DNA of 64,000 bases from a virus: the IMG/VR virus record IMGVR_UViG_3300036398_002324; one strand, 5' to 3'. Under the pieces are notes generated by a model that saw only the letters and a program-made list of their open reading frames with translations, was not told the DNA's origin and searched no databases. Shown piece by piece: positions 32,265 to 59,047 of this stretch; position 1 is the stretch's first letter; every line of letters starts with the position of its first letter. The position numbers and the translations under genes are program-made.

Positions 32265-33206
32265 ATGGGACAGTGGCGAGTATTAGTAACTGGTGGAGCT
32301 GGTTACATTGGTTGTATTCTAGTAGAATACTTATTGCAAATAGGATGTAAAGTTACTGTATTGGATAACTTTATGTTTCGTCAAAGTGGATTGAATCATC
32401 TTTGTGAAAATAAAGACTTGACCATCGTGAATGGTGATATTCGTAATCCAGCACATATGGCACAACTGCTGAAAGAAGCAGATATTATTATTCCTCTTGC
32501 TGCACTTGTTGGCGCACCATTGTGTAACAAAGATGTTGTTGGTGCAGACACAACAAATAAAGATGCAATGTTCTGGATGCTAAAGAATGTATCAAATGAA
32601 CAGCGCATCATTATGCCTACAACAAATTCTGCTTATGGTACCGGTGATGAAAATAACTTCTGTACAGAAGATTCTCCACTACGTCCTATTTCAAAGTATG
32701 CGGTCGATAAAGTTGCAGTAGAAAAAGAATTAATGCAGCGTGAAAATTCAATCAGCTATCGTCTTGCTACAGTATTCGGTATGTCACCGCGTATGCGTAC
32801 AGATTTGTTGGTTAATGACTTGACATATCGTGCAGTGAATGATGGTTATACTATCATCTTTGAGGGTCACTTCAAACGTAATTATGTCCATGTGCGTGAT
32901 GTATGTGAAGCATTCTTACACGCAATTCATCAGTTTGAAAATATGCGTGGTAATATTTACAACGTAGGTCTTTCTTCAGCAAACGTTTCTAAATTAGAGT
33001 TGTGTGAAATTATTAAGAAACATATTCCAAGCTTTACAATCGTAGAAGGCGATATCAAGAAAGACCCTGACCAACGTAACTATATCGTTTCAAATGAAAA
33101 GTTAGAAGCAACTGGATGGATGCCATATCATACACTTGATGATGGTATTGTTGAACTTATTAAGGGATACACATACATCAAGAACAATATTCATGGTAAT
33201 GTATAA
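32265..33206 (+). CDS. NAD-dependent sugar epimerase/reductase (extended SDR)
   Basis: VTGGAGYIG, YAVDK (YxxxK), RLATVFG. Confidence 0.88.
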   Translation: MGQWRVLVTGGAGYIGCILVEYLLQIGCKVTVLDNFMFRQSGLNHLCENKDLTIVNGDIRNPAHMAQLLKEADIIIPLAALVGAPLCNKDVVGADTTNKDAMFWMLKNVSNEQRIIMPTTNSAYGTGDENNFCTEDSPLRPISKYAVDKVAVEKELMQRENSISYRLATVFGMSPRMRTDLLVNDLTYRAVNDGYTIIFEGHFKRNYVHVRDVCEAFLHAIHQFENMRGNIYNVGLSSANVSKLELCEIIKKHIPSFTIVEGDIKKDPDQRNYIVSNEKLEATGWMPYHTLDDGIVELIKGYTYIKNNIHGNV

Positions 33207-33742
33207 TGGCAACCCATTACGTAAACAACGCTGATTTTTTAGCAGCATTAATAAAATATAAAGAAGATTGCGTCATATCGGAGAGAGATGGAACACCAGA
33301 ACCAAAAGTTCCAAATTACATTGGCGAATGTTTTCTAAAAATTGCGGAACATCTATCAAGAAAACCAAACTTCATATCATATACTTATCGTGATGAGATG
33401 ATATCTGATGGTGTTGAAAATTGTTTGATGTACTTCCGCAATTTTGACCCGGCAAAATCAACAAATCCATTTGCTTATTTTACACAGATAATATATTATG
33501 CATTCTTACGTAGAATTATGCGTGAGAAGAAACAGTTATATGTTAAGTATAAAGCAACACAACAATTTGGATTACTTGATGAGGGAGAGATGTTTGAAGA
33601 TGAAGATGGAAACATGAGGCAATTTGAATTGTATGATAACATCTCAGAATTTATCCATAATTTTGAAGAGAATAAGAAAAAGAAAAGCGTAAAGAAAGCA
33701 ACTGGACTTGAACAATTTTTGGATGATGAGACTGAAAAATGA
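33206..33742 (+). CDS. gp55: Late sigma factor gp55
   Basis: HYVNN, YIGECFLKIA.HLS.KPNF, NPFAYFTQIIYYAFLRRI. Confidence 0.95.
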   Translation: MATHYVNNADFLAALIKYKEDCVISERDGTPEPKVPNYIGECFLKIAEHLSRKPNFISYTYRDEMISDGVENCLMYFRNFDPAKSTNPFAYFTQIIYYAFLRRIMREKKQLYVKYKATQQFGLLDEGEMFEDEDGNMRQFELYDNISEFIHNFEENKKKKSVKKATGLEQFLDDETEK

Positions 33743-45007: not shown

Positions 45008-45685
45008 ATGAAACTCTCTGATAACACACTTACGTTGCTGAAGAATTTTGCAACAATCAATCAAGGTATTATGTTCAAAAAAGGTAAGACACTCCGTACA
45101 GTGTCTAGTCAAAAGAACGTAATGGCTGAAGCAACAATCAATGAAGAAATTCCTACAGACTTTGGTGTATTTGATTTGAACAATTTTCTCTCAGTTCTTT
45201 CTCTACACAAAGATGATCCAGTCCTAGACTTTCAAGACAATAATGTTTTGATTTCTGGTCTACAGGGTCGTAGTAAAATCAAGTATCGATTCTGTGCGCC
45301 ACATATGCTTGTTGCTGCACCAGATAAAGCAATTGCAATGCCTGAGCCAGAGATTTCTTTTACTCTGAATCAGGAAGATTTTGACTGGATTCTTAAAGCA
45401 GCGTCAGTTCTCTCTTCACCGTTCATTGCAATTGAATCTGATGGCTCAAAACTTTCTGTGACAACATTTGACCCACAGAATGATGCAGCACATACAGAAT
45501 CACTTGAGATTGCAACCAGCAACAAGAAGTTCAAGATGTTGTTTAAGGTTGAGAATCTTAAAATGATTTCTGGTGCTTATGATGTTAAGATTTCATCGAA
45601 AGGTATTTCAAACTTTAAACATAAAACATTGAATCTTCAATACTGGATTGCAACTGAAACTGGTTCAAAATACGAGGGTGAATAA
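45008..45685 (+). CDS. gp45: Sliding clamp gp45
   Basis: MKLS..TL..LKNFATINQGI; FGVFDLNNFL; YWIATE. Confidence 0.93.
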   Translation: MKLSDNTLTLLKNFATINQGIMFKKGKTLRTVSSQKNVMAEATINEEIPTDFGVFDLNNFLSVLSLHKDDPVLDFQDNNVLISGLQGRSKIKYRFCAPHMLVAAPDKAIAMPEPEISFTLNQEDFDWILKAASVLSSPFIAIESDGSKLSVTTFDPQNDAAHTESLEIATSNKKFKMLFKVENLKMISGAYDVKISSKGISNFKHKTLNLQYWIATETGSKYEGE

Positions 45686-50018: not shown

Positions 50019-50323
50019 GTGAAATTAAATGTTTTACTTTTAAAACTCATCAAACTATCATGGGTGAAGTCACAGATGATGGTAATATTGGCTTCACACT
50101 TAAAAATCCTATGCAAGTGATTGCTGTTCCACCACGTTCAGCAAATGATTCTGGTGGAGTTGGTTTTGCACCATATCTTGCTTTTGTTGAAGAGTTTGAT
50201 AGAGGAATCAATTTTAAATATGATGATGTTCTGACTGTCAATACACCCGTGGCGGATTTACTCAGTCAATATAATCGCATGTTTAGTCGTATTGAAATCG
50301 CACCAGCAGGATTAAAATTGTAA
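50015..50323 (+). CDS. Conserved T4-like hypothetical protein (Sm-like)
   Basis: Coupled on both sides; P...L..QY...FS.I pattern common before gp43. Confidence 0.6.
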   Translation: MSEIKCFTFKTHQTIMGEVTDDGNIGFTLKNPMQVIAVPPRSANDSGGVGFAPYLAFVEEFDRGINFKYDDVLTVNTPVADLLSQYNRMFSRIEIAPAGLKL

Positions 50324-52866
50324 TGTCAAAATATTACACGAATGTTTGTGTCCACAACAATCACATATTGTTTCGTGGTGTAAATAACGGTCGGAGAGTA
50401 AAGAGCAAAGTCAAATACTCTCCGACTTTGTTTTTGAAGTCTAATAAACCGTCCAAATGGAATTCATTATTCAATGAACCATTGGAGCCAATGACCTTTG
50501 ATACTATTAGGGAGGCACGTGATTTTGTCAAACGTTATGAAGATGTTTCAAACTTTCAAATCTTTGGCAATACAAGGTATGAATACGCCTTTATTGCTGA
50601 CAATTTTAGAGGTAACATTGATTGGGATATTTCTGATTTATCTATCGCTTTCATAGATATCGAAGTTGGTTCTGAAAATGGATTTCCTGACCCATACAAA
50701 GCAACAGAACCAATCACTGCAATTGGTATTCATCAGTTAAATGGTGGTACTACAGTCTATGGTTGTGGAACTTATAAAAATAATCGTGATGATGTTGACT
50801 ACATTTTATGTGAAGATGAAATTGACCTTTGTGAAAAGTTTCTTGCTGATTGGACAAGCAATTGCCCTGATGTTCTTACTGGTTGGAATATCAAGTTCTT
50901 TGATGTTCCTTATCTTATCAATCGTTTCAAACGTATACTTGGCGAAGATGATGTAAAGAAACTCTCTCCTTGGGAAATCATTTCCGACCGTGAGTTGACT
51001 TTCAAAGGTAAGAAACAAACCGCATATGAAATCGTTGGCGTTGCAGCACTTGATTATCTTGAGTTGTACCAATGGTATGCTCCTGGTGGTAAGAATGTTG
51101 AAAACTACAAACTTGAAACGATTGCAAGTAATGAGTTGGATGAAACTAAGTTGTCATATGATGAGTATGATAATCTTCATCAGCTATACAAGTTAGACTA
51201 TCAAAAGTTTATTGACTATAATATCAAAGACGTTCATCTTGTTCTTGCACTTGAAGATAAGTTGAAGTTGATTGAACTTGCACTTACTCTTGCATATGAT
51301 ACCAAATCAAACTTCGGCGATGTATTTGCACAAACAAGAATGTGGGATGCATTGATTTATAACTATCTGCTTGATAAACAAATCATCGTACCACCAAGAA
51401 GAGTTGTAAAAAAGAACGAAGCTTTTGAGGGTGCGTATGTCAAAGACCCGCAAGTTGGTTTGCATGATTATGTGGCATCGTTTGACTTGAACAGTCTGTA
51501 TCCACACCTAATCATGCAGTACAATATTAGTCCCGAAACGTTGATTGATAACTCAAACTATTCTCCGGATATGCGTAAGCTTTCATCTGAGGCTTCTGTA
51601 GATAGTTTGCTTGATAAAAGAGTAGACACATCGGTGCTAAAAGATGTGACGATTACTCCGAACGGACAATTCTTTCGTACAGATAAACAGGGCTTTCTTC
51701 CTAAGATGATGTCTGAGATGTATGATGACCGAAAGAAGTTCAAGAAAGAGATGCTGAAGGCTCAACAAGAATATGAGAATGAAACAGACAAGAAAAAGAG
51801 AAAAGAAATTGAAAAACTGATTGCACGTTATAACAATCTACAACTTGCAAAGAAAGTTTCATTGAACTCTGCTTATGGTATCATGGGTTCACAATACTTC
51901 CGTTTCTATGATTTGCGTATTGCTCTTGCTGTAACACAAACCGGTCAGCTATCGATTCGTTGGATTGAAAACAAGCTGAATGAGTATATGAATGATGTAC
52001 TCAAATCAAATAATGATTATGTAATTGCATCAGACACAGATTCGATTTATTTAAATCTTGGTCCTCTTGTAAAGAAAGTATATGGCGTAGATGGTAAAGT
52101 AACTTTGTCTGGTGCAAAAGCAATTGAATTCATGGACAAAGTTTGTGAGCAAAAAATTCAGCCATATATTGACAAGTCATATCAAGAACTTGCTGATTAC
52201 GTTCATGCGTATGAACAGAAGATGCAGATGAAACGTGAGGGTCTTTCAGACAAAGGTATCTGGACTGCAAAGAAAAGATACATTCTGAATGTGTATAACA
52301 ACGAAGGTGTTCAGTACGCCAAACCAAAACTCAAAGTTATGGGTCTTGAGATGGTAAAGTCATCAACACCAACTGTTGTGCGTGACAAGATGTATAAGCT
52401 GATTGATTTGGTAGTCAACACAGATGAAGAAACAGTTCAACAATTTATTGCCGACTTCAGAGAAGAGTTTAAAACATTACCTGTAGAAGATGTATCTTTT
52501 CCTCGTGGATGCAATGGTCTGTCTGAATATTCTGATTCCGTTACAATATATAAAAAGGGAACACCAATTCATGTCAAGGGTGCGATACTATACAATCACT
52601 ATCTAAAACAGTATAAGCTTACCAACAAGTATCCATCTGTAAAAGAAGGTGAGAAGTTAAAGTTTACTTACTTGAAAACACCAAATCCAATCAGAGATAT
52701 GGTAATATCTTTCCCAACGAGATTGCCAAAAGAGTTTGACCTACAAGAATATATTGATTATGATATGCAGTTTGAAAAAACTTTTCTAGACCCAATCAAA
52801 TTGATTTTAAATTGTATTGATTGGAAAACAGAAAAGCAATCTACACTTGAAGACTTTTTCTCATGA
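50323..52866 (+). CDS. gp43: Family B DNA polymerase gp43
   Basis: DIEV exonuclease, SFDLNSLYPH, KVSLNSAYG, SDTDS, KKRY; unsplit, no intein. Confidence 0.97.
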   Translation: MSKYYTNVCVHNNHILFRGVNNGRRVKSKVKYSPTLFLKSNKPSKWNSLFNEPLEPMTFDTIREARDFVKRYEDVSNFQIFGNTRYEYAFIADNFRGNIDWDISDLSIAFIDIEVGSENGFPDPYKATEPITAIGIHQLNGGTTVYGCGTYKNNRDDVDYILCEDEIDLCEKFLADWTSNCPDVLTGWNIKFFDVPYLINRFKRILGEDDVKKLSPWEIISDRELTFKGKKQTAYEIVGVAALDYLELYQWYAPGGKNVENYKLETIASNELDETKLSYDEYDNLHQLYKLDYQKFIDYNIKDVHLVLALEDKLKLIELALTLAYDTKSNFGDVFAQTRMWDALIYNYLLDKQIIVPPRRVVKKNEAFEGAYVKDPQVGLHDYVASFDLNSLYPHLIMQYNISPETLIDNSNYSPDMRKLSSEASVDSLLDKRVDTSVLKDVTITPNGQFFRTDKQGFLPKMMSEMYDDRKKFKKEMLKAQQEYENETDKKKRKEIEKLIARYNNLQLAKKVSLNSAYGIMGSQYFRFYDLRIALAVTQTGQLSIRWIENKLNEYMNDVLKSNNDYVIASDTDSIYLNLGPLVKKVYGVDGKVTLSGAKAIEFMDKVCEQKIQPYIDKSYQELADYVHAYEQKMQMKREGLSDKGIWTAKKRYILNVYNNEGVQYAKPKLKVMGLEMVKSSTPTVVRDKMYKLIDLVVNTDEETVQQFIADFREEFKTLPVEDVSFPRGCNGLSEYSDSVTIYKKGTPIHVKGAILYNHYLKQYKLTNKYPSVKEGEKLKFTYLKTPNPIRDMVISFPTRLPKEFDLQEYIDYDMQFEKTFLDPIKLILNCIDWKTEKQSTLEDFFS

Positions 52867-53408
52867 AGAATATACGAATCATCAAAACTGGTATTAATGT
52901 TTCAAAAATACTGAAACAACTGAATGATAATCCTGGAGATTGGAATTATCAACAAAAGATGCCAGATACCAAAGTATTAGACCCACACACTTATATAAGT
53001 CAAGCTGCTGTTCTTCAACTTGTTATTGGCACAATCACTCATCCAGATGAATATGTTTTTGACTCTGAGGGATGTATTCCTGCGCCACCATATCAACGTC
53101 ACACTGAAGCTGTTGGTTTTCTGAAGAGGCACTTTAAAGAGTTTAAACGTGCTGGATTCTTAGCATTACCACCAGGCGGTGTAACTGGCGCACATGTAGA
53201 CTTTGGTAAGTATTATCTGAATAAAGATAGATATCATCTTTCAATACAAGGCACTTATGAATATGTTGTTGGTGATGAAAAAATTATTGTTGAGCCAGGA
53301 ACTCTATTTTGGTTTAATAATAAGTTAGAACACTCAGCAAAAAATATTGGAACTATTGATAGAATTGTTTTAGTGTTTGATGTTCCACACGCAAAAGAAA
53401 ATCCATGA
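52863..53408 (+). CDS. Fe(II)/2OG oxygenase, Asp/Asn beta-hydroxylase-like
   Basis: HVDFG (HxD), RYHLSI, WFNNK..HSA.N....RI.LVFD. Confidence 0.75.
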   Translation: MKNIRIIKTGINVSKILKQLNDNPGDWNYQQKMPDTKVLDPHTYISQAAVLQLVIGTITHPDEYVFDSEGCIPAPPYQRHTEAVGFLKRHFKEFKRAGFLALPPGGVTGAHVDFGKYYLNKDRYHLSIQGTYEYVVGDEKIIVEPGTLFWFNNKLEHSAKNIGTIDRIVLVFDVPHAKENP

Positions 53409-54304
53409 TACAAGTCATCTTACCTTTTTTGACTGCACTTGCGCTGTCTGGTATTGCAGCATACTATTCAGTGATAGGTCTTGCTCAGATATTTCCTGGC
53501 TCATACTGGCCAATTATCATTATGGGTTCTGTACTTGAAGCAGCAAAACTAGTAACTGTATCATGGGTATACAATCATTGGAAAGAAACATTCTCTGCTT
53601 TAAAAGTCTATTTCTTGATTGCTGTAATATTACTCATGGGAATCACTTCAATGGGCATTTTTGGTTATCTTTCAAAAGCACACATTGAACATTCATCAAC
53701 GATTGCACCACAAGTAGCAAAGGTAGAAATATATGACGAAAAAATTAAATCGCTCCAAGCGACCATTGAGAGGAATGACAAGAACCTTAATCAGTATGAT
53801 GAAGCTGTCGACCAAATTATGGGCAGGTCGAAAGACGAAAGGGGTGCCGAGAGGGCATCACAGATACGCAAAGCCCAACAGAAAGACCGTCAGAGAATCG
53901 CTGCTGAGAATGCAGGGCTTCAAAAAGAGATTCAGAAACTTACAGAAGAAAAGCTTCCTTTATCCTTGGAAGTTAAGAAGGCTGAATCAGACTTGGGACC
54001 TATCAAGTACGTTGCCGAGGTAGTATATGGTACGCAAGACCATGATTTAATTGACAAAGCAGTTCGATTGGTAATCTTTGTCATTATTATTGTTTTTGAC
54101 CCACTTGCTGTGTTGTTATTAATTGCAGCAAATCAAACATACCGTGGATTGAAAAAAGAAGAACCCGAACTAGTAAAAAAGGTTACAAAGAAAAAAAAGA
54201 TTGACACAACACCAACAAATAGTTTAGAATCATTCTTTAATGACAAAGTTACAATACACAAAGATAATATAGCAAATATCGGAGATAAGTTGGATGAAAC
54301 ATGA
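53405..54304 (+). CDS. Membrane protein with coiled coil
   Basis: Three N-terminal and one C-terminal hydrophobic helices; GIFGYLSKAH; FDPLAV. Confidence 0.7.
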   Translation: MIQVILPFLTALALSGIAAYYSVIGLAQIFPGSYWPIIIMGSVLEAAKLVTVSWVYNHWKETFSALKVYFLIAVILLMGITSMGIFGYLSKAHIEHSSTIAPQVAKVEIYDEKIKSLQATIERNDKNLNQYDEAVDQIMGRSKDERGAERASQIRKAQQKDRQRIAAENAGLQKEIQKLTEEKLPLSLEVKKAESDLGPIKYVAEVVYGTQDHDLIDKAVRLVIFVIIIVFDPLAVLLLIAANQTYRGLKKEEPELVKKVTKKKKIDTTPTNSLESFFNDKVTIHKDNIANIGDKLDET

Positions 54305-55106
54305 TTTTGAAATAAAGCAGATATCAAAATTTGATGCGACTGAGTTTATTCAAAAATATCATTATTCTCCTGTTATGCCCTCTATAACAAAACATTTTTT
54401 AGGTTTTTTTATAAAAGAAGAATTGAAGGGTGTTTTAACTCTAGGTTGGGGCACACAACCCAGACAAACTATTAATAAGATGTTTCCTGGTCTTGAATCA
54501 AAAGACTATTTTGAGATAGGTAAAATGTGTATGTCTGAAGATATGCCACGAAATTCTGAATCTCAAATGATTTCCGGCATCATAAAATGGATGAAACAAA
54601 ATACTAAATGTTTATTCCTATACACCATGGCAGACGGAATAATGGGAAAATGTGGCTACGTATATCAAGCATCAAATTTTTATTTTGGTGAAAAATATTG
54701 GACAAGTGTTTATATGATGGAAAATGGTGAAAAATTGCATCCAAGGTCAACTAAAGAATTGTGTAAAGAAAATGCCATTTTTTCTAATAAATCTAAAATT
54801 TTTTGGTTAACCAAAGACTTTATGAAACAAAAAGGTATTAAAAAAATTAATGGTTATATGTTTCGTTACATCTATCCTCTTAATAAAACAGCGAAGAATA
54901 TGATGAAAACTAAGTCATCTTTGGATTGGACTCTGAACTATCCAAAAGATAAAGATTTAGAATGGTATGATGTAACAGATACAAAAAATAAACAAAAAAT
55001 CCAACAACCAGCTTTTACTTTTGAAGCCGCCAAATATAATATCAAAAATATTGAGTCACATAAGAGAAACGTATCATCGACATTAGAAGAATTTTTTGTG
55101 GAATAA
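54294..55106 (+). CDS. Mom-like GNAT-fold DNA-modifying acyltransferase
   Basis: FIQKYHYS, EIGKMC....PRNSES..IS, YTMAD...G..GYVYQASNF match Mom-family motifs. Confidence 0.7.
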   Translation: MKHDFEIKQISKFDATEFIQKYHYSPVMPSITKHFLGFFIKEELKGVLTLGWGTQPRQTINKMFPGLESKDYFEIGKMCMSEDMPRNSESQMISGIIKWMKQNTKCLFLYTMADGIMGKCGYVYQASNFYFGEKYWTSVYMMENGEKLHPRSTKELCKENAIFSNKSKIFWLTKDFMKQKGIKKINGYMFRYIYPLNKTAKNMMKTKSSLDWTLNYPKDKDLEWYDVTDTKNKQKIQQPAFTFEAAKYNIKNIESHKRNVSSTLEEFFVE

Positions 55107-55108
55107 TT

Positions 55109-55555
55109 ATGGCTAAATTAACTGATGCATCAAAAGCAAACAAAAGCGGTCAAGAGTTGGAACGTAAACTTATGGATTTCTTAATTGAGAAAAAAATACC
55201 TTTTAAGAGACAGAGACCTAGACAACCCGAAATAGACTTTGTTATTGATAACACAATTTATGCGGATTGCACAAATCAGAATGTAGAAGGTTCGGTGCAA
55301 GAAAAAATACCACATAAGATATGGAAATATTATAAAAAATACGGTTACAAAGAAGTGTATATAATACGTGGTTTTCATATTCCCGACAGAAGCGTTATAC
55401 AACATTGTGATGAAATAGCAGAAAAATTTAACTTCAAATGGCATTTAGTAACTTTTGAAGAGTTTTGTGAAATTCTTGGATATGAAAGACCGAAATCTGC
55501 TTTTGGAAATCTTGAAAATTTTATTATAGAGGAAGAAGAAAATGAGTGTGCTTGA
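55109..55555 (+). CDS. PD-(D/E)XK restriction-endonuclease-like protein
   Basis: SGQELE (motif I), EIDFVI (II), ADCTNQ..EGS.QEK (III variant). Confidence 0.55.
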   Translation: MAKLTDASKANKSGQELERKLMDFLIEKKIPFKRQRPRQPEIDFVIDNTIYADCTNQNVEGSVQEKIPHKIWKYYKKYGYKEVYIIRGFHIPDRSVIQHCDEIAEKFNFKWHLVTFEEFCEILGYERPKSAFGNLENFIIEEEENECA

Positions 55556-56606
55556 TAAACTAAAAAAGAGTTCGACAATTAAAGAAAGTTCCATACTTTC
55601 AAAGTCGCAATTCTTTACAGAAAAAGATATGATACAGACAGATGTTCCTATGGTGAACGTTGCTTTGTCTGGTAGTTTAGACGGTGGTTTGACACCAGGA
55701 CTAACTATGTTTGCTGGACCATCAAAACATTTTAAAACAGCGTTTGCTTTGTTGATGGCATCTGCGTACATGAAGAAGTATAAAGATGCTGTTGTTTTGT
55801 TTTATGATTCAGAGTTTGGTACACCACAGAAATACTTTGAAACTTTCAACATCGATACTGACCGTGTACTACACACACCAATCACTGACGTTGAACAGTT
55901 AAAACATGATATCATGAATCAACTACAAAGTATTGAAAAGAATGACCGAGTAATTATTATTCTCGATTCGATTGGCAATCTTGCATCAAAGAAAGAAGTT
56001 GATGATGCAACAGAAGGTAAGTCTGTTGCAGATATGTCACGTGCCAAACAAATCAAGAGTTTGTTTCGTATGATTACACCACATCTAACACTCAAAGATA
56101 TTCCTATGATTGTTGTCAATCACACATACAAAGAGATTGGCATGTTCCCTAAAGATATCGTTGGTGGTGGTACAGGTTCTTACTACTCTGCTGATACGAT
56201 TTGGATTCTTGGACGTCAACAAGATAAAGATGGCACTGAAATTGTAGGTTATAACTTTATCATTAATGTGGAAAAATCAAGATATGTTCGTGAAAAATCT
56301 AAGATACCTGTTACTGTATCTTTTGACGGTGGTATTAACAAGTGGTCTGGTCTTATGGATATTGCACTCGAAAGCAATTTCGTAACTAAGCCAAGTAATG
56401 GTTGGTATGCAAAGGTTGACCAAGATACGGGTGAAGTTTTGGAAAAAAAGCGTCTTGCAGATACACAAACTGAAGAATTTTGGAAAGATATCATTGCCGA
56501 CGAGAAATTCAAAGAATATGTGAGAAAAAAATATGAAATCACTTATAGCAACATTATGGGCGAAAATATTATTTTGGAAGAGGATGAAGACCCAGCTACA
56601 GCATAA
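55542..56606 (+). CDS. uvsX: RecA-like recombinase UvsX
   Basis: AGPSKHFKT, FYDSEFG, DSIGNLASKKE, ADMSRAK. Confidence 0.95.
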   Translation: MSVLDKLKKSSTIKESSILSKSQFFTEKDMIQTDVPMVNVALSGSLDGGLTPGLTMFAGPSKHFKTAFALLMASAYMKKYKDAVVLFYDSEFGTPQKYFETFNIDTDRVLHTPITDVEQLKHDIMNQLQSIEKNDRVIIILDSIGNLASKKEVDDATEGKSVADMSRAKQIKSLFRMITPHLTLKDIPMIVVNHTYKEIGMFPKDIVGGGTGSYYSADTIWILGRQQDKDGTEIVGYNFIINVEKSRYVREKSKIPVTVSFDGGINKWSGLMDIALESNFVTKPSNGWYAKVDQDTGEVLEKKRLADTQTEEFWKDIIADEKFKEYVRKKYEITYSNIMGENIILEEDEDPATA

Positions 56607-56907: not shown

Positions 56908-58270
56908 TGAAGATTTTGCAAGAAAAATTTTACCATTCATTAAAGCTGAATACTTCACAGACTCCGTAGAAAAAATCGTTTTCAATGAAATTAATGACCA
57001 CATACAAGAATACAAACATCTTCCTACATATGAATCACTTGTAATCAATTTTACAGAATCTAAAAAACTTTCAGAAGACCAGGTCAGCGAATCTATTCAA
57101 ATGATTCGTGAGATTAATGTTGATAGAGAAGAGCCAACAGATGTAGAATGGTTAATCAATCAAACTGAAAAATTCTGTCAAGACCGTGCGTTGTATAATG
57201 CTATTATGCAATCCGTAAAAATTCTTGATGATAAGACCAAGAAAGAAGACAAAGGTTCAATTCCAAAACTGCTGAGTGATGCTCTTGGTGTATCTTTTGA
57301 TGCATCGGTGGGTCATGATTATATTGATGATTCATCATCACGATATGACTTTTATCATCGGCACGAATCAAAAATACCTTTTGACTTGGACTTGTTCAAT
57401 AAGATTACAAAAGGTGGTTTGCCCAAAAAGACTTTGAACATTGCACTTGCTGGCACTGGTGTTGGTAAATCTTTGTTCATGTGTCACGTTGCAGGTTCTT
57501 GTTTGTCACAAGGCCTGAATGTTTTGTACATCACAATGGAAATGGCAGAAGAACGTATTGCAGAACGTATTGATGCCAATCTATTGAATATTGATATTGC
57601 AGACTTGAATTCTATTTCAAAGCAGGACTATGACCGCAAATTTTCTGCGTTGAGGGTAAAGACTCAGGGTAAACTTATCATCAAAGAGTATCCTACTGCA
57701 TCAGCATCAGCACTTCATTTTCGTGCTTTGTTAAATGAATTGCAACTCAAAAAGAGTTTCAAACCTGATATCATCTTCATCGACTATCTTAACATTTGTG
57801 CAAGCGCCAGAATCAAGCCTGGTGCTAACGTAAATAGTTATTCTTATATTAAGGCAATTGCCGAAGAACTCCGGGGTCTGGCCGTCGAGTTTGACGTTCC
57901 CATCATGTCAGCTACACAGACCACACGAAGCGGCTTCACCAGCTCGGACCCAGGCTTGGAAGATACGTCAGAATCGTTTGGTCTGCCAGCCACAGCCGAC
58001 TTTATGTTCGCTTTGATAAGTACCGAAGAGTTAGAACAATTGAATCAGTTAATGATTAAGCAACTCAAGAATCGATATAACGACCCAAGCTATTTCAAAC
58101 GATTCGTGGTAGGTATTGACAGGGCAAAGATGAAGCTGTATGATGTAGAACAGACTGCACAAGATGATTTGGTAGATGCGGGTCAAGTTGATGATAAACC
58201 TTTGAATACATTCGGTGAGCGTGAAAGACTATCTGGAACAAAAAATAAGTTCGGAGGTTTTAAAGTATAA
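56864..58270 (+). CDS. gp41: Replicative helicase gp41
   Basis: AGTGVGKS, MEMAEE, IDYLNI, ATQTTRSG, SESFGLPATAD, QLKNRY. Confidence 0.96.
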   Translation: MKRLETTILKNLIFNEDFARKILPFIKAEYFTDSVEKIVFNEINDHIQEYKHLPTYESLVINFTESKKLSEDQVSESIQMIREINVDREEPTDVEWLINQTEKFCQDRALYNAIMQSVKILDDKTKKEDKGSIPKLLSDALGVSFDASVGHDYIDDSSSRYDFYHRHESKIPFDLDLFNKITKGGLPKKTLNIALAGTGVGKSLFMCHVAGSCLSQGLNVLYITMEMAEERIAERIDANLLNIDIADLNSISKQDYDRKFSALRVKTQGKLIIKEYPTASASALHFRALLNELQLKKSFKPDIIFIDYLNICASARIKPGANVNSYSYIKAIAEELRGLAVEFDVPIMSATQTTRSGFTSSDPGLEDTSESFGLPATADFMFALISTEELEQLNQLMIKQLKNRYNDPSYFKRFVVGIDRAKMKLYDVEQTAQDDLVDAGQVDDKPLNTFGERERLSGTKNKFGGFKV

Positions 58271-58273
58271 ATA
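58266..58273 (+). promoter_or_regulatory. Late promoter TATAAATA
   Basis: Exact consensus overlapping the gp41 stop; AAGGAG follows. Confidence 0.75.
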
Positions 58274-58294: not shown

Positions 58295-59047
58295 ATGGCT
58301 GCTCAACAAGGATTTCAGTACGAAATCAATGCTGCAAAGGTGTTGAAACCTTTAGGACTAGTTCCTAAAAGTTTTGTTCCTGCGGGTGCTGGTCATGACC
58401 AACCAGATTTGATGTTGGAATATAAAAAAATCAAAGCTGGATGTGAATTAAAAATCACTGCTGCATCTGCGGGTTCTTTAGTATTGAAGTATGATTCATC
58501 AGATAAGAAAAATCCATGGAAATTTGGTGACATTAAAAAAGATGATGACGAAAAAATGTTTATTAAAGAACTGGCTGAAGAAGTTGGCTTATTTGATTTT
58601 ATTAAGAAACAGTGGAAAGAAGTTCCATATAAACGAGATAAAGATTTGAAATGGGAAGCAACTGCTGGAAAAATGACTCCGCAACAAAGATATGAACGAG
58701 ACCGTGATACATTCAAAGATATTCGTGGAGAAATCTCAGCGACAAAAATTGAACAATATTATAACAAAAAAGCCACTTACTATGTTAATGTTGGAACGCA
58801 TGGTTTCTATTTAATGGGTAAAAAAAATCCATTAAAATTAAAGAATGTTCCCGCTTTTGGTTCTTCAGCAAAAGCAACATATCGTGCCCGTGTACAATAT
58901 AAAGGAAGTGGAAATTATCAGTTCACATTTGAAATGCAATTTGCAATACCTTCAGCAAAAAAATCACCATATAATATTGCTCCAGTCAATGGAAAAAATG
59001 TGACCATAATAACCAAAGATTTAAATCTAAGTTGCTTCGACATATGA
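58295..59047 (+). CDS. Basic PD-(D/E)XK nuclease-like protein
   Basis: GFQYE...QPDLML...CELK arrangement; Lys-rich. Confidence 0.5.
   Translation: MAAQQGFQYEINAAKVLKPLGLVPKSFVPAGAGHDQPDLMLEYKKIKAGCELKITAASAGSLVLKYDSSDKKNPWKFGDIKKDDDEKMFIKELAEEVGLFDFIKKQWKEVPYKRDKDLKWEATAGKMTPQQRYERDRDTFKDIRGEISATKIEQYYNKKATYYVNVGTHGFYLMGKKNPLKLKNVPAFGSSAKATYRARVQYKGSGNYQFTFEMQFAIPSAKKSPYNIAPVNGKNVTIITKDLNLSCFDI

Follow-up and report, generated by a model that had tools for sequence, protein, structure and literature searches.

A Mom-family protein and a small PDDEXK_11-family nuclease that share a clamp-type tail: a possible replication-coupled adenine modification module in a T4-like phage

Clamp-associated DNA marking has a eukaryotic parallel in Dnmt1 and PCNA, and in phage T4 the use of hydroxymethylcytosine (hmC) and glucosyl-hmC is combined with the endonucleases EndoII and EndoIV (denA/denB), such that unmodified host DNA is degraded and modified phage DNA is spared. 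Here, we examined a locus in the 64,000-nucleotide (nt) stretch of viral DNA in IMG/VR record IMGVR_UViG_3300036398_002324 (this whole stretch is termed the window), in which two adjacent open reading frames (ORFs) encode a protein of the Mom family of DNA modification enzymes (ORF1) and a predicted nuclease of the PDDEXK_11 family (ORF2), both ending in a tail like that of gp43, the DNA polymerase of the same phage. The T4 arrangement differs from this locus in relying on pre-replicative replacement of cytosine and on nucleases of unrelated fold, and in having no clamp tails. Nearly all work on adenine hypermodification of the Mom type has been done in phage Mu, whose Mom uses glycine from Gly-tRNA as the donor and forms N6-carbamoylmethyladenine (ncm6A) as the product (PMC13219725). 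Fusions of Mom with a restriction endonuclease (REase) in jumbo phages were predicted to act as restriction-modification (R-M)-like 'momylation systems' (Iyer et al. 2021, PMC7824862). Like the window pair, these combine a Mom-family modifier with a nuclease of REase fold, for which unmodified DNA is the predicted target; in contrast to them, the window has separate genes, PDDEXK_11 proteins also pair with methyltransferases, and both partners carry a clamp-type tail. The alpha-glucosyltransferase (alpha-GT) of T4 binds the sliding clamp gp45 (Sommer 2004; confirmed in PMC13216743); the level of modification was found to be set chiefly by something other than this binding (PMC13216743). It offers the closest likeness for a DNA-modifying enzyme on the clamp and for replication-coupled marking, which for the window Mom would follow from comparative sequence evidence, yet it differs in fold and chemistry and has no obvious SLDFL-type tail. 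The R-M-like idea and the clamp-bound modifier are therefore each precedented, and the new element is the clamp-type tail on both Mom and its partner nuclease. We are aware of no earlier account of Mom and a partner nuclease both bearing a gp43-type tail, of PDDEXK_11 as a partner of Mom, or of a spread of tailed Mom proteins in aquatic T4-like phages; literature queries on PDDEXK_11, or pairing 'Mom-like' with cyanophage, likewise returned nothing. To our knowledge, neither a DNA-modifying enzyme of the Mom type nor such a nuclease is known as a client of gp45.

The two genes lie on the + strand at 54294-55106 and 55109-55555 and are separated by a 2-nt gap, as had been reported in the first-pass annotation of this DNA, which was made from the letters and translations alone. 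The AT-richer block in which that annotation placed them was also recovered, with a G+C fraction of 0.275-0.32 over 54000-55600 vs about 0.35-0.41 in the flanks. The parts of the pair referred to below are as follows.

54294..55106, + strand: ORF1, Mom-family GNAT protein, 270 amino acids (aa); matches to PF25680, PHROG 1384 and PDB 8BV8
54303..54914, + strand: Mom catalytic domain, residues 4-207, from the alignment to Mu Mom
54915..55103, + strand: Mom C-terminal extension, residues 208-270, with conserved NYPKDKDL.W and YN.KN blocks and the tail
55083..55097, + strand: Mom tail motif L264-E-E-F-F268, candidate gp45-binding motif, from conservation in orthologues
55109..55555, + strand: ORF2, PDDEXK_11-family small nuclease (predicted), 148 aa; PF20472 near the cut-off, homologues carry PF20472
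55124..55483, + strand: nuclease core, residues 6-125, alpha-beta-beta-beta-alpha-beta-alpha-beta-alpha in the AlphaFold2 (AF2) model
55511..55525, + strand: nuclease tail motif L135-E-N-F-I139 followed by an acidic run, candidate gp45-binding motif, from conservation of F138

Three matches placed ORF1 in the Mom family, in agreement with one another and with the assignment first made from motifs: Pfam PF25680 (E-value 4.7e-56, 190.1 bits vs a cut-off of 27.1, residues 4-207), PHROG 1384 'Mom-like DNA modification protein' (E-value 1e-39) and PDB 8BV8, which is Mu Mom (E-value 2.2e-16 over residues 5-207). The motifs on which that assignment had relied were located at residues 23-25 (HYS), 85-90 (PRNSES) and 110-129 (YTMADGIMGKCGYVYQASNF), and the HYS, PRNSES, AD and YQASNF blocks were found to align to Mu Mom without gaps and at high posterior probability. 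Equivalents of the Mu Mom active-site residues H58, Y59, S124, D149 and Y159 are conserved in ORF1. Thus, the two proteins share a Pfam family and a GNAT core that aligns over ~200 residues; they differ in sequence (~31% identity) and in the 63 residues that the window protein adds past the Mom domain, which end in STLEEFFVE and bring the gp43-like tail. The region of ORF1 corresponding to the helix-turn-helix-like insertion of Mom aligns to Mu residues ~175-209 with gaps. The AF2 model of ORF1 was of low quality (mean predicted local distance difference test [pLDDT] of 60), with residues 241-270 at pLDDT < 50. The modelling of both proteins that had been proposed as a check was therefore informative in part, the nuclease core being modelled with confidence and the Mom model being too poor for a fold search. 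PADLOC and NCBIfam gave no match for ORF1 or ORF2.

ORF2 belongs to a family for which only 98 clusters, nearly all of 125-185 aa, emerged when 1.84 billion representatives were searched exhaustively with a profile. Most of its 32 homologues (47-99% identity) carry PF20472 (PDDEXK_11), including homologues at 47-70% identity, and distant matches to the PDDEXK_11 profile score 43-83 bits. Clusters named PDDEXK_11 in the ESM Atlas are viral (Uroviricota and some Nucleocytoviricota), and the structural neighbours in that resource are Mrr_cat and AlwI REases. The AF2 model, built from a 22-sequence alignment, has a core at residues 6-125 with pLDDT of about 80-94 and a disordered end at 128-148; its secondary structure (H6-27, E32-34, E44-46, E50-54, H62-78 and E82-87) gives an alpha-beta-beta-beta-alpha-beta core. 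Structural comparison of this core by VIA-align ranked type II REases first, with Ecl18kI (Z 8.3), the R.BspD6I small subunit (8.2), EcoRII-C (8.1) and PspGI (7.7) followed by BstEII, FokI, BsaWI and SgrAI, where the whole top group lies at Z 7-8.3 and a Z of ~8 is a borderline level that the tool calls common. The Ecl18kI/EcoRII/PspGI group and the R.BspD6I small subunit align over 115-134 residues at Z 7.7-8.3; in contrast to these enzymes, to which it is 8-18% identical, ORF2 is without recognition or dimerisation extensions. The motifs quoted by the first-pass annotation for a PD-(D/E)XK nuclease were found at residues 13-18 (SGQELE), 42-44 (IDF) and 53-66 (DCTNQNVEGSVQEK), where the spacing given between the Q and the GS of the last was one residue too short; the class itself held up, on family membership and on the type II REase-like model. 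Residues E18, D43, D53, K66, H69 and K70 are invariant or nearly so among 22 family members, and the motif is D..D-x-T plus a helix lysine, unlike the usual arrangement of type II REases; that K66 supplies the catalytic lysine from the helix is a guess. ORF2 reads as a small restriction-type nuclease, predicted from family and model to be active and minimal. Its core is 47-89% identical across lineages. No match to the ORF2 profile was detected among PDB sequences, and none to the nuclease by tblastn in 50,697 phage records.

The C-terminal tails were next compared with those of replication proteins of the same phage. The relevant features elsewhere in the window are as follows.

50323..52866, + strand: gp43 DNA polymerase; C-terminal LEDFF at nt 52846-52860, the reference clamp-binding tail
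33206..33742, + strand: gp55 late sigma factor; LEQFL at nt 33707-33721, then an acidic tail
45008..45685, + strand: gp45 sliding clamp, proposed docking partner; homology to gp45 genes beside gp44/gp62 in many related contigs

The tails of T4 gp43, gp55 and gp33 are interchangeable gp45-binding motifs (PMC2988020), with T4 gp43 ending in SLDFLFG and gp55 in SLDFLYEAND at positions equivalent to the tails in the window. As in T4, the window tails are short hydrophobic and acidic motifs at the extreme C-terminus behind a variable linker; the sequence differs (SLDFL[FY] in T4 vs [ST]LExF[FL] in the window phage), as does the range of bearers, the window phage having this putative clamp motif also on a DNA-modifying enzyme and a nuclease. 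All three tails quoted by the first-pass annotation (STLEEFFVE in Mom, NLENFIIEEE... in the nuclease and STLEDFFS in gp43) are present, and the likeness it drew was borne out, since those of Mom and the nuclease correspond by position to the clamp-binding tails that gp43 and gp55 carry. The pattern LE.F[FLIM] was detected six times in the 73 window proteins (20,181 aa), and four of the six occurrences fall within the last 12 residues, where 0.1 is expected: gp43 (LEDFFS), gp55 (LEQFLDDETEK), Mom (LEEFFVE) and the nuclease (LENFIIEEEENECA). The other two are 21 residues from the end of the membrane protein encoded upstream of ORF1 and internal in gp46. The resemblance exceeds chance. This pattern was set after seeing the examples, and for that reason conservation in orthologues serves as the independent support. 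Mom L264, E265 and F267 were found to be invariant in 13 orthologues from three genomic arrangements; among 77 complete related Mom ORFs, the strict motif is present in 36 and a broader motif in 67, and a tail resembling that of the polymerase occurs in most of the 80 closest Mom relatives. In the nuclease, F138 is nearly invariant (22 family members). The motif is kept in Mom and the nuclease across all arrangements while its Leu, Glu and Phe codons vary synonymously, which argues for selection on the peptide and not on a DNA element. The same correspondence is seen in the cultured Kyanoviridae phage Melnitz, where ATLEGFF is the end of Mom and TTLEDFFG that of gp43. In Edwardsiella and Psychrobacter phages, which encode the closest non-T4-like homologues of Mom (50-53% identity), the protein is ~15 residues shorter at its C-terminus and has no such motif, and the non-T4-like nuclease homologues (L040-L045) are likewise without it. 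That two unrelated proteins have gained a tail specifically in this lineage speaks well, on comparative grounds, for clamp docking, short of proof; the tails of Mom and the nuclease would accordingly bind gp45. Complex prediction of gp45 with Mom residues 205-270 scored 0.54 vs 0.37 for the control, a result classed as 'no answer' and used neither way. As a separate observation, the C-terminus of an MT-A70 protein encoded near a nuclease gene (L026:2793-3359) reads ...HSTLEEHMI and nearly copies the tail, the Phe being replaced by His; the L030-type MT-A70 is without such a tail.

The linkage of the nuclease to DNA modification genes was examined in contigs encoding homologues and by scans of IMG/VR. 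Either gene of the Mom-nuclease pair may come first, the stop codon of one usually overlapping the start codon of the next, and at least five contexts were found: (i) gp43-..-Mom-nuclease-uvsX, the slot of the window; (ii) gp47-nuclease-Mom-gp46 (L010, L025 and L028); (iii) gp44-Mom-nuclease-gp62 (L029 and L166); (iv) gp43-nuclease-Mom (L140); and (v) gp62..nuclease-Mom (L158 and L168). The co-occurrence across phages that the first-pass annotation had proposed to look for is therefore seen, in different contexts and both orders; among the computational outcomes that it had named as speaking against its proposal (ORF2 not modelling as a nuclease, or the two genes not being linked elsewhere), none was found. 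In the Mom-less relatives L034-L037 the nuclease abuts an MT-A70 N6-adenine methyltransferase, and in L026 and L030 it is one gene away from MT-A70. For a distant family member, the gene directly upstream, at a distance of 19 nt, encodes a Dam-like methyltransferase of the D12 class. Three longer family members (P0097, P0109 and P0123; L214) consist of an N-terminal PDDEXK_11 domain fused to a D12 N6-adenine methyltransferase. Among 30 distinct nucleases, 18 are adjacent to Mom, five are adjacent to or near MT-A70 and seven have neither in the locus; for one of these seven, a Mom gene was located 13 kb away in the same 137-kb genome. The D12-associated members fall on one side of the family tree, and the Mom and MT-A70 lineages are interleaved on an unresolved backbone. 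Partnership with three unrelated adenine-N6 modifiers, together with the fusions, is the strongest argument that the function of the nuclease is tied to an adenine-N6 mark, and the recurrent linkage supports a probable R-M-like coupling between nuclease and modifier.

Several observations were made beside these linkage data. A word-indexed search for longer forms of the nuclease returned no fusion, whereas the exhaustive profile search gave the three D12 fusions. A fusion of Mom with the nuclease was found neither by the word-indexed search for longer forms, which is weak evidence, nor by the exhaustive profile search. The neighbours of the P0097 gene encode KOW/SPT5-like and NOX-type domains and point to a contig of giant-virus or eukaryote-like character. 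In the 137-kb genome IMGVR_UViG_3300020457_000004 (L197/L038), Mom lies between gp45 and gp44 and ends in ...GGGASLRGIL, the nuclease homologue is tail-less, and gp43 has a variant of the motif at its end (...TLESLF). Mom-like genes were likewise placed between gp45 and gp44 at loci L187-L205. DruA-like proteins (PF14236/DUF4338) of ~370-400 aa adjoin MT-A70 or Mom in several T4-like phages (L030:5597-6697, L038:2578-3690 and L134:2157-3362); they were considered as relatives of Mom and rejected, no relation being detectable (hhalign probability 0.1). The Mom homologue at L147:1790-2605, upstream of gp45, is split into two ORFs (1790-2305 and 2321-2605), which could reflect gene disruption or misassembly.

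The reading we prefer, at what we consider even chances, is that in this T4-like phage the pair works as an R-M-like module that couples adenine modification of DNA to replication. By analogy with Mu Mom, ORF1 would transfer an aminoacyl group to adenine N6 in double-stranded DNA. Its flexible tail would dock on gp45, as the comparative sequence data suggest, so that new phage DNA would be modified at or just behind the fork. ORF2, which also carries the tail, would cut DNA without the adenine-N6 mark, be it of the host or of a co-infecting phage; this role is suggested by its fold, its neighbourhood and the fusions. Phage DNA that is fully or hemi-modified would be spared, and the nuclease would be an optional accessory, with Mom alone serving anti-restriction. 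The R-M logic as such is an inference from neighbourhood and fusions. Were the tail to dock on gp45, phages would have a simple and portable means of tying both DNA marking and a nuclease that reads the mark to replication. For the viral PDDEXK_11 family, so far uncharacterised, the data suggest a role that can be tested, namely that of nuclease partner to Mom, MT-A70 and D12, three adenine-N6 modifiers that are unrelated to one another. Phage Melnitz, cultured on OM43, has a tailed Mom, and the modification question is thus directly testable; no homologue of the nuclease was found in Melnitz. A wider form of the proposal, which we regard as unlikely, is that a large group of marine and freshwater T4-like phages has self/non-self marking built into the replisome, with a tRNA-dependent adenine writer and a mark-sensitive nuclease both on gp45. 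The gp43-type tails would then be interchangeable; nascent phage DNA would receive the mark, and cutting would befall any unmarked DNA that the clamp meets, whether from the host, from a co-infecting phage or of the wrong strand. The mark may here be a new adenine adduct and not ncm6A, because the window's subfamily replaces two arginines that are essential in Mu.

A number of findings weigh against the R-M-like reading, and these concern the modifier, the nuclease and the association of the two. With regard to the modifier, Mu R111 is replaced in ORF1 by K77, R151 by I116 and W181 by K, with K119 at the position of R154, and K77, I116 and K119 are invariant in the 13-member Mom subfamily. The R111K variant of Mu Mom is strongly reduced in activity and R151A is dead (PMC13219725). 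With these two arginines replaced, the donor and product cannot be assumed to be the Gly-tRNA and ncm6A of Mu, and ORF1 may differ from Mu Mom in donor, product or activity. As for the nuclease, ORF2 itself matched PF20472 just under the cut-off (E-value 2.4e-4, 21.3 bits vs 23.7), its VIA-align scores are of the borderline level given above, and a Foldseek search of its model against the PDB gave no match at E <= 0.001. The position of the canonical (D/E)XK lysine is occupied by T55 (D53-C-T55), the conserved K66 being on the next helix, and the ~120-residue core has no separate DNA-recognition domain. A nuclease tethered to the clamp would also be risky at forks unless hemi-modified DNA is resistant, which is an assumption. 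Finally, the association with Mom is optional. More than 543 stretches in IMG/VR encode relatives of Mom, and in the 80 closest of these, 54 of the Mom loci are <= 3 kb from gp41, gp43, gp44, gp45, gp62 or uvsX, and the nuclease is present in only 10 and missing from 70. Comparison of L132:3600-4500 with L133:3340-3800 revealed 433 of 460 flank positions to be identical (94%) and a 435-bp nuclease ORF to be cleanly present in one and absent from the other. The junctions are at ATAATG stop/start repeats, and in the nuclease-less form the Mom frame continues to ...SLEGFFNNEYS. In a complete 335-kb jumbo phage, a tail-less homologue of the nuclease was found beside PolB with no Mom or MT-A70, other methyltransferase classes being unchecked there. 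The nuclease is thus a dispensable add-on to Mom and not an obligatory partner. That Mom is common without the nuclease while the nuclease is rare without a nearby modifier fits R-M logic, in which losing the nuclease and keeping the modifier is the safe direction; the same pattern is equally expected of a mobile selfish gene.

Among the alternatives, the one that survives best, though we think it unlikely, is that the nuclease is a clamp-associated enzyme of replication, recombination or repair, either Hjc- or NucS/EndoMS-like or a MutH-like nickase reading hemi-modified adenine, for which Mom or a methyltransferase would supply a nascent-strand mark and not self-protection. The conserved clamp-type tail of the nuclease would suit such a role, as would the constant location of its gene in a replication/recombination module beside gp43, gp44/62, gp46/47 or uvsX and, for the non-T4-like homologues, directly upstream of a family B polymerase gene. 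PCNA-bound PD-(D/E)XK nucleases exist in archaea, the minimal core without a recognition domain has Hjc among its weaker fold matches, and a link to post-replicative adenine-N6 marks parallels Dam/MutH. However, the top structural matches are type II REases and not Hjc, MutH or NucS, fusions of the R-M kind typically look like the one with a D12 methyltransferase, no MutS or MutL partner was seen, and the gene is dispensable among near-identical phages.

The clean presence or absence of the nuclease ORF also bears on a second alternative, which we hold to be improbable: that the nuclease is a freestanding, homing-type selfish endonuclease, spreading among co-infecting T4-like phages and dragging Mom or MT-A70 along as cargo, so that adjacency reflects hitch-hiking. 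PD-(D/E)XK homing endonucleases such as I-Ssp6803I exist. The 94%-identical flanks, the insertion at a gene boundary with ATAATG junctions and the many different slots occupied between conserved replication genes are all as expected of such an element. In T4 (NC_000866, 20000-45000), the gp43-uvsX slot holds b-gt-segA and the gp47-gp55 slot a-gt-mobB, and this presence of a modification gene with a homing endonuclease in the same slots makes homing a real rival. Counter to it, the conserved core (47-89% identity) and conserved tail argue for a function that benefits the host of the gene, hitch-hiking does not predict that the partners, fused ones included, should all be adenine-N6 modifiers and come from three unrelated folds, and no DNA-binding domain or extension for a long target is visible in the 148-aa protein. 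The methyltransferase fusions, the REase-type fold and the three-fold pattern of partners led us to rank both the homing and the repair explanations behind the R-M-like reading.

It is more improbable still that the shared tail has a purpose other than clamp binding (another partner, or a degradation or localisation signal) and that the two genes are mere neighbours in a hyperplastic region. The motif was defined post hoc, some family members lack it, and the gp43-uvsX interval is variable among relatives; nonetheless, gp43 and gp55 bear the motif where T4 has proven clamp-binding tails, Mom and the nuclease have it in T4-like contexts only, and the adjacency holds in both gene orders and at least five contexts. 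Least probable of all is that the PD-(D/E)XK protein is a catalytically inactive DNA-binding or targeting subunit of adenine modifiers, as the lysine missing from D53-C-T55, the small size of a domain fused N-terminally to D12 methyltransferases and the resemblance to the partner-dependent R.BspD6I small subunit might suggest, since E18, D43, D53, K66, H69 and K70 are almost invariant, as in an active metal-dependent site, and Mom mostly occurs without the nuclease.

The window phage is T4-like, of Kyanoviridae type and marine or freshwater. Its nearest named relatives are Kyanoviridae, namely phage C48C1 (uvsX 70% nt identity) and Methylophilales phage Melnitz. The genes that surround the pair between gp43 and uvsX, an interval that varies among relatives, are as follows.

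52863-53408, + strand: cupin / Asp-Arg-hydroxylase-like gene, between gp43 and the 299-aa membrane protein
53405..54304, + strand: membrane/coiled-coil protein, 299 aa; subterminal SLESFF at nt 54224-54238; syntenic with Mom in the clade of the window
55542-56606, + strand: uvsX, followed by a small ORF and then gp41

ORF1 overlaps the upstream gene by 11 nt and ORF2 overlaps uvsX by 14 nt. The 299-aa protein (53405-54304) has N-terminal transmembrane segments and a coiled coil and occupies the slot of T4 imm/imm.1; it is an uncertain member of the module. Its SLESFF is ~21 residues from the C-terminus in most orthologues, those of the L006/L023 type excepted. With regard to expression, mom of Mu is a late gene, whereas the window Mom is in a replication module without a nearby late promoter; the T4-type late promoter TATAAATA was not found near the ORF1/ORF2 pair, which fits expression together with the replication genes. 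The best sigma-70-like site of the region (54201-54230, TTGACA-18-TAGAAT, 11/12) is 64 nt upstream of the Mom start; it is not above shuffle expectation for the region and overlaps the SLESFF codons of the upstream gene. The late promoter sequence TATAAATA was located at 58266-58273, downstream of gp41 and just before a 250-aa gene (58295-59047, PHROG 26930), an odd placement for a late gene, within a replication module.

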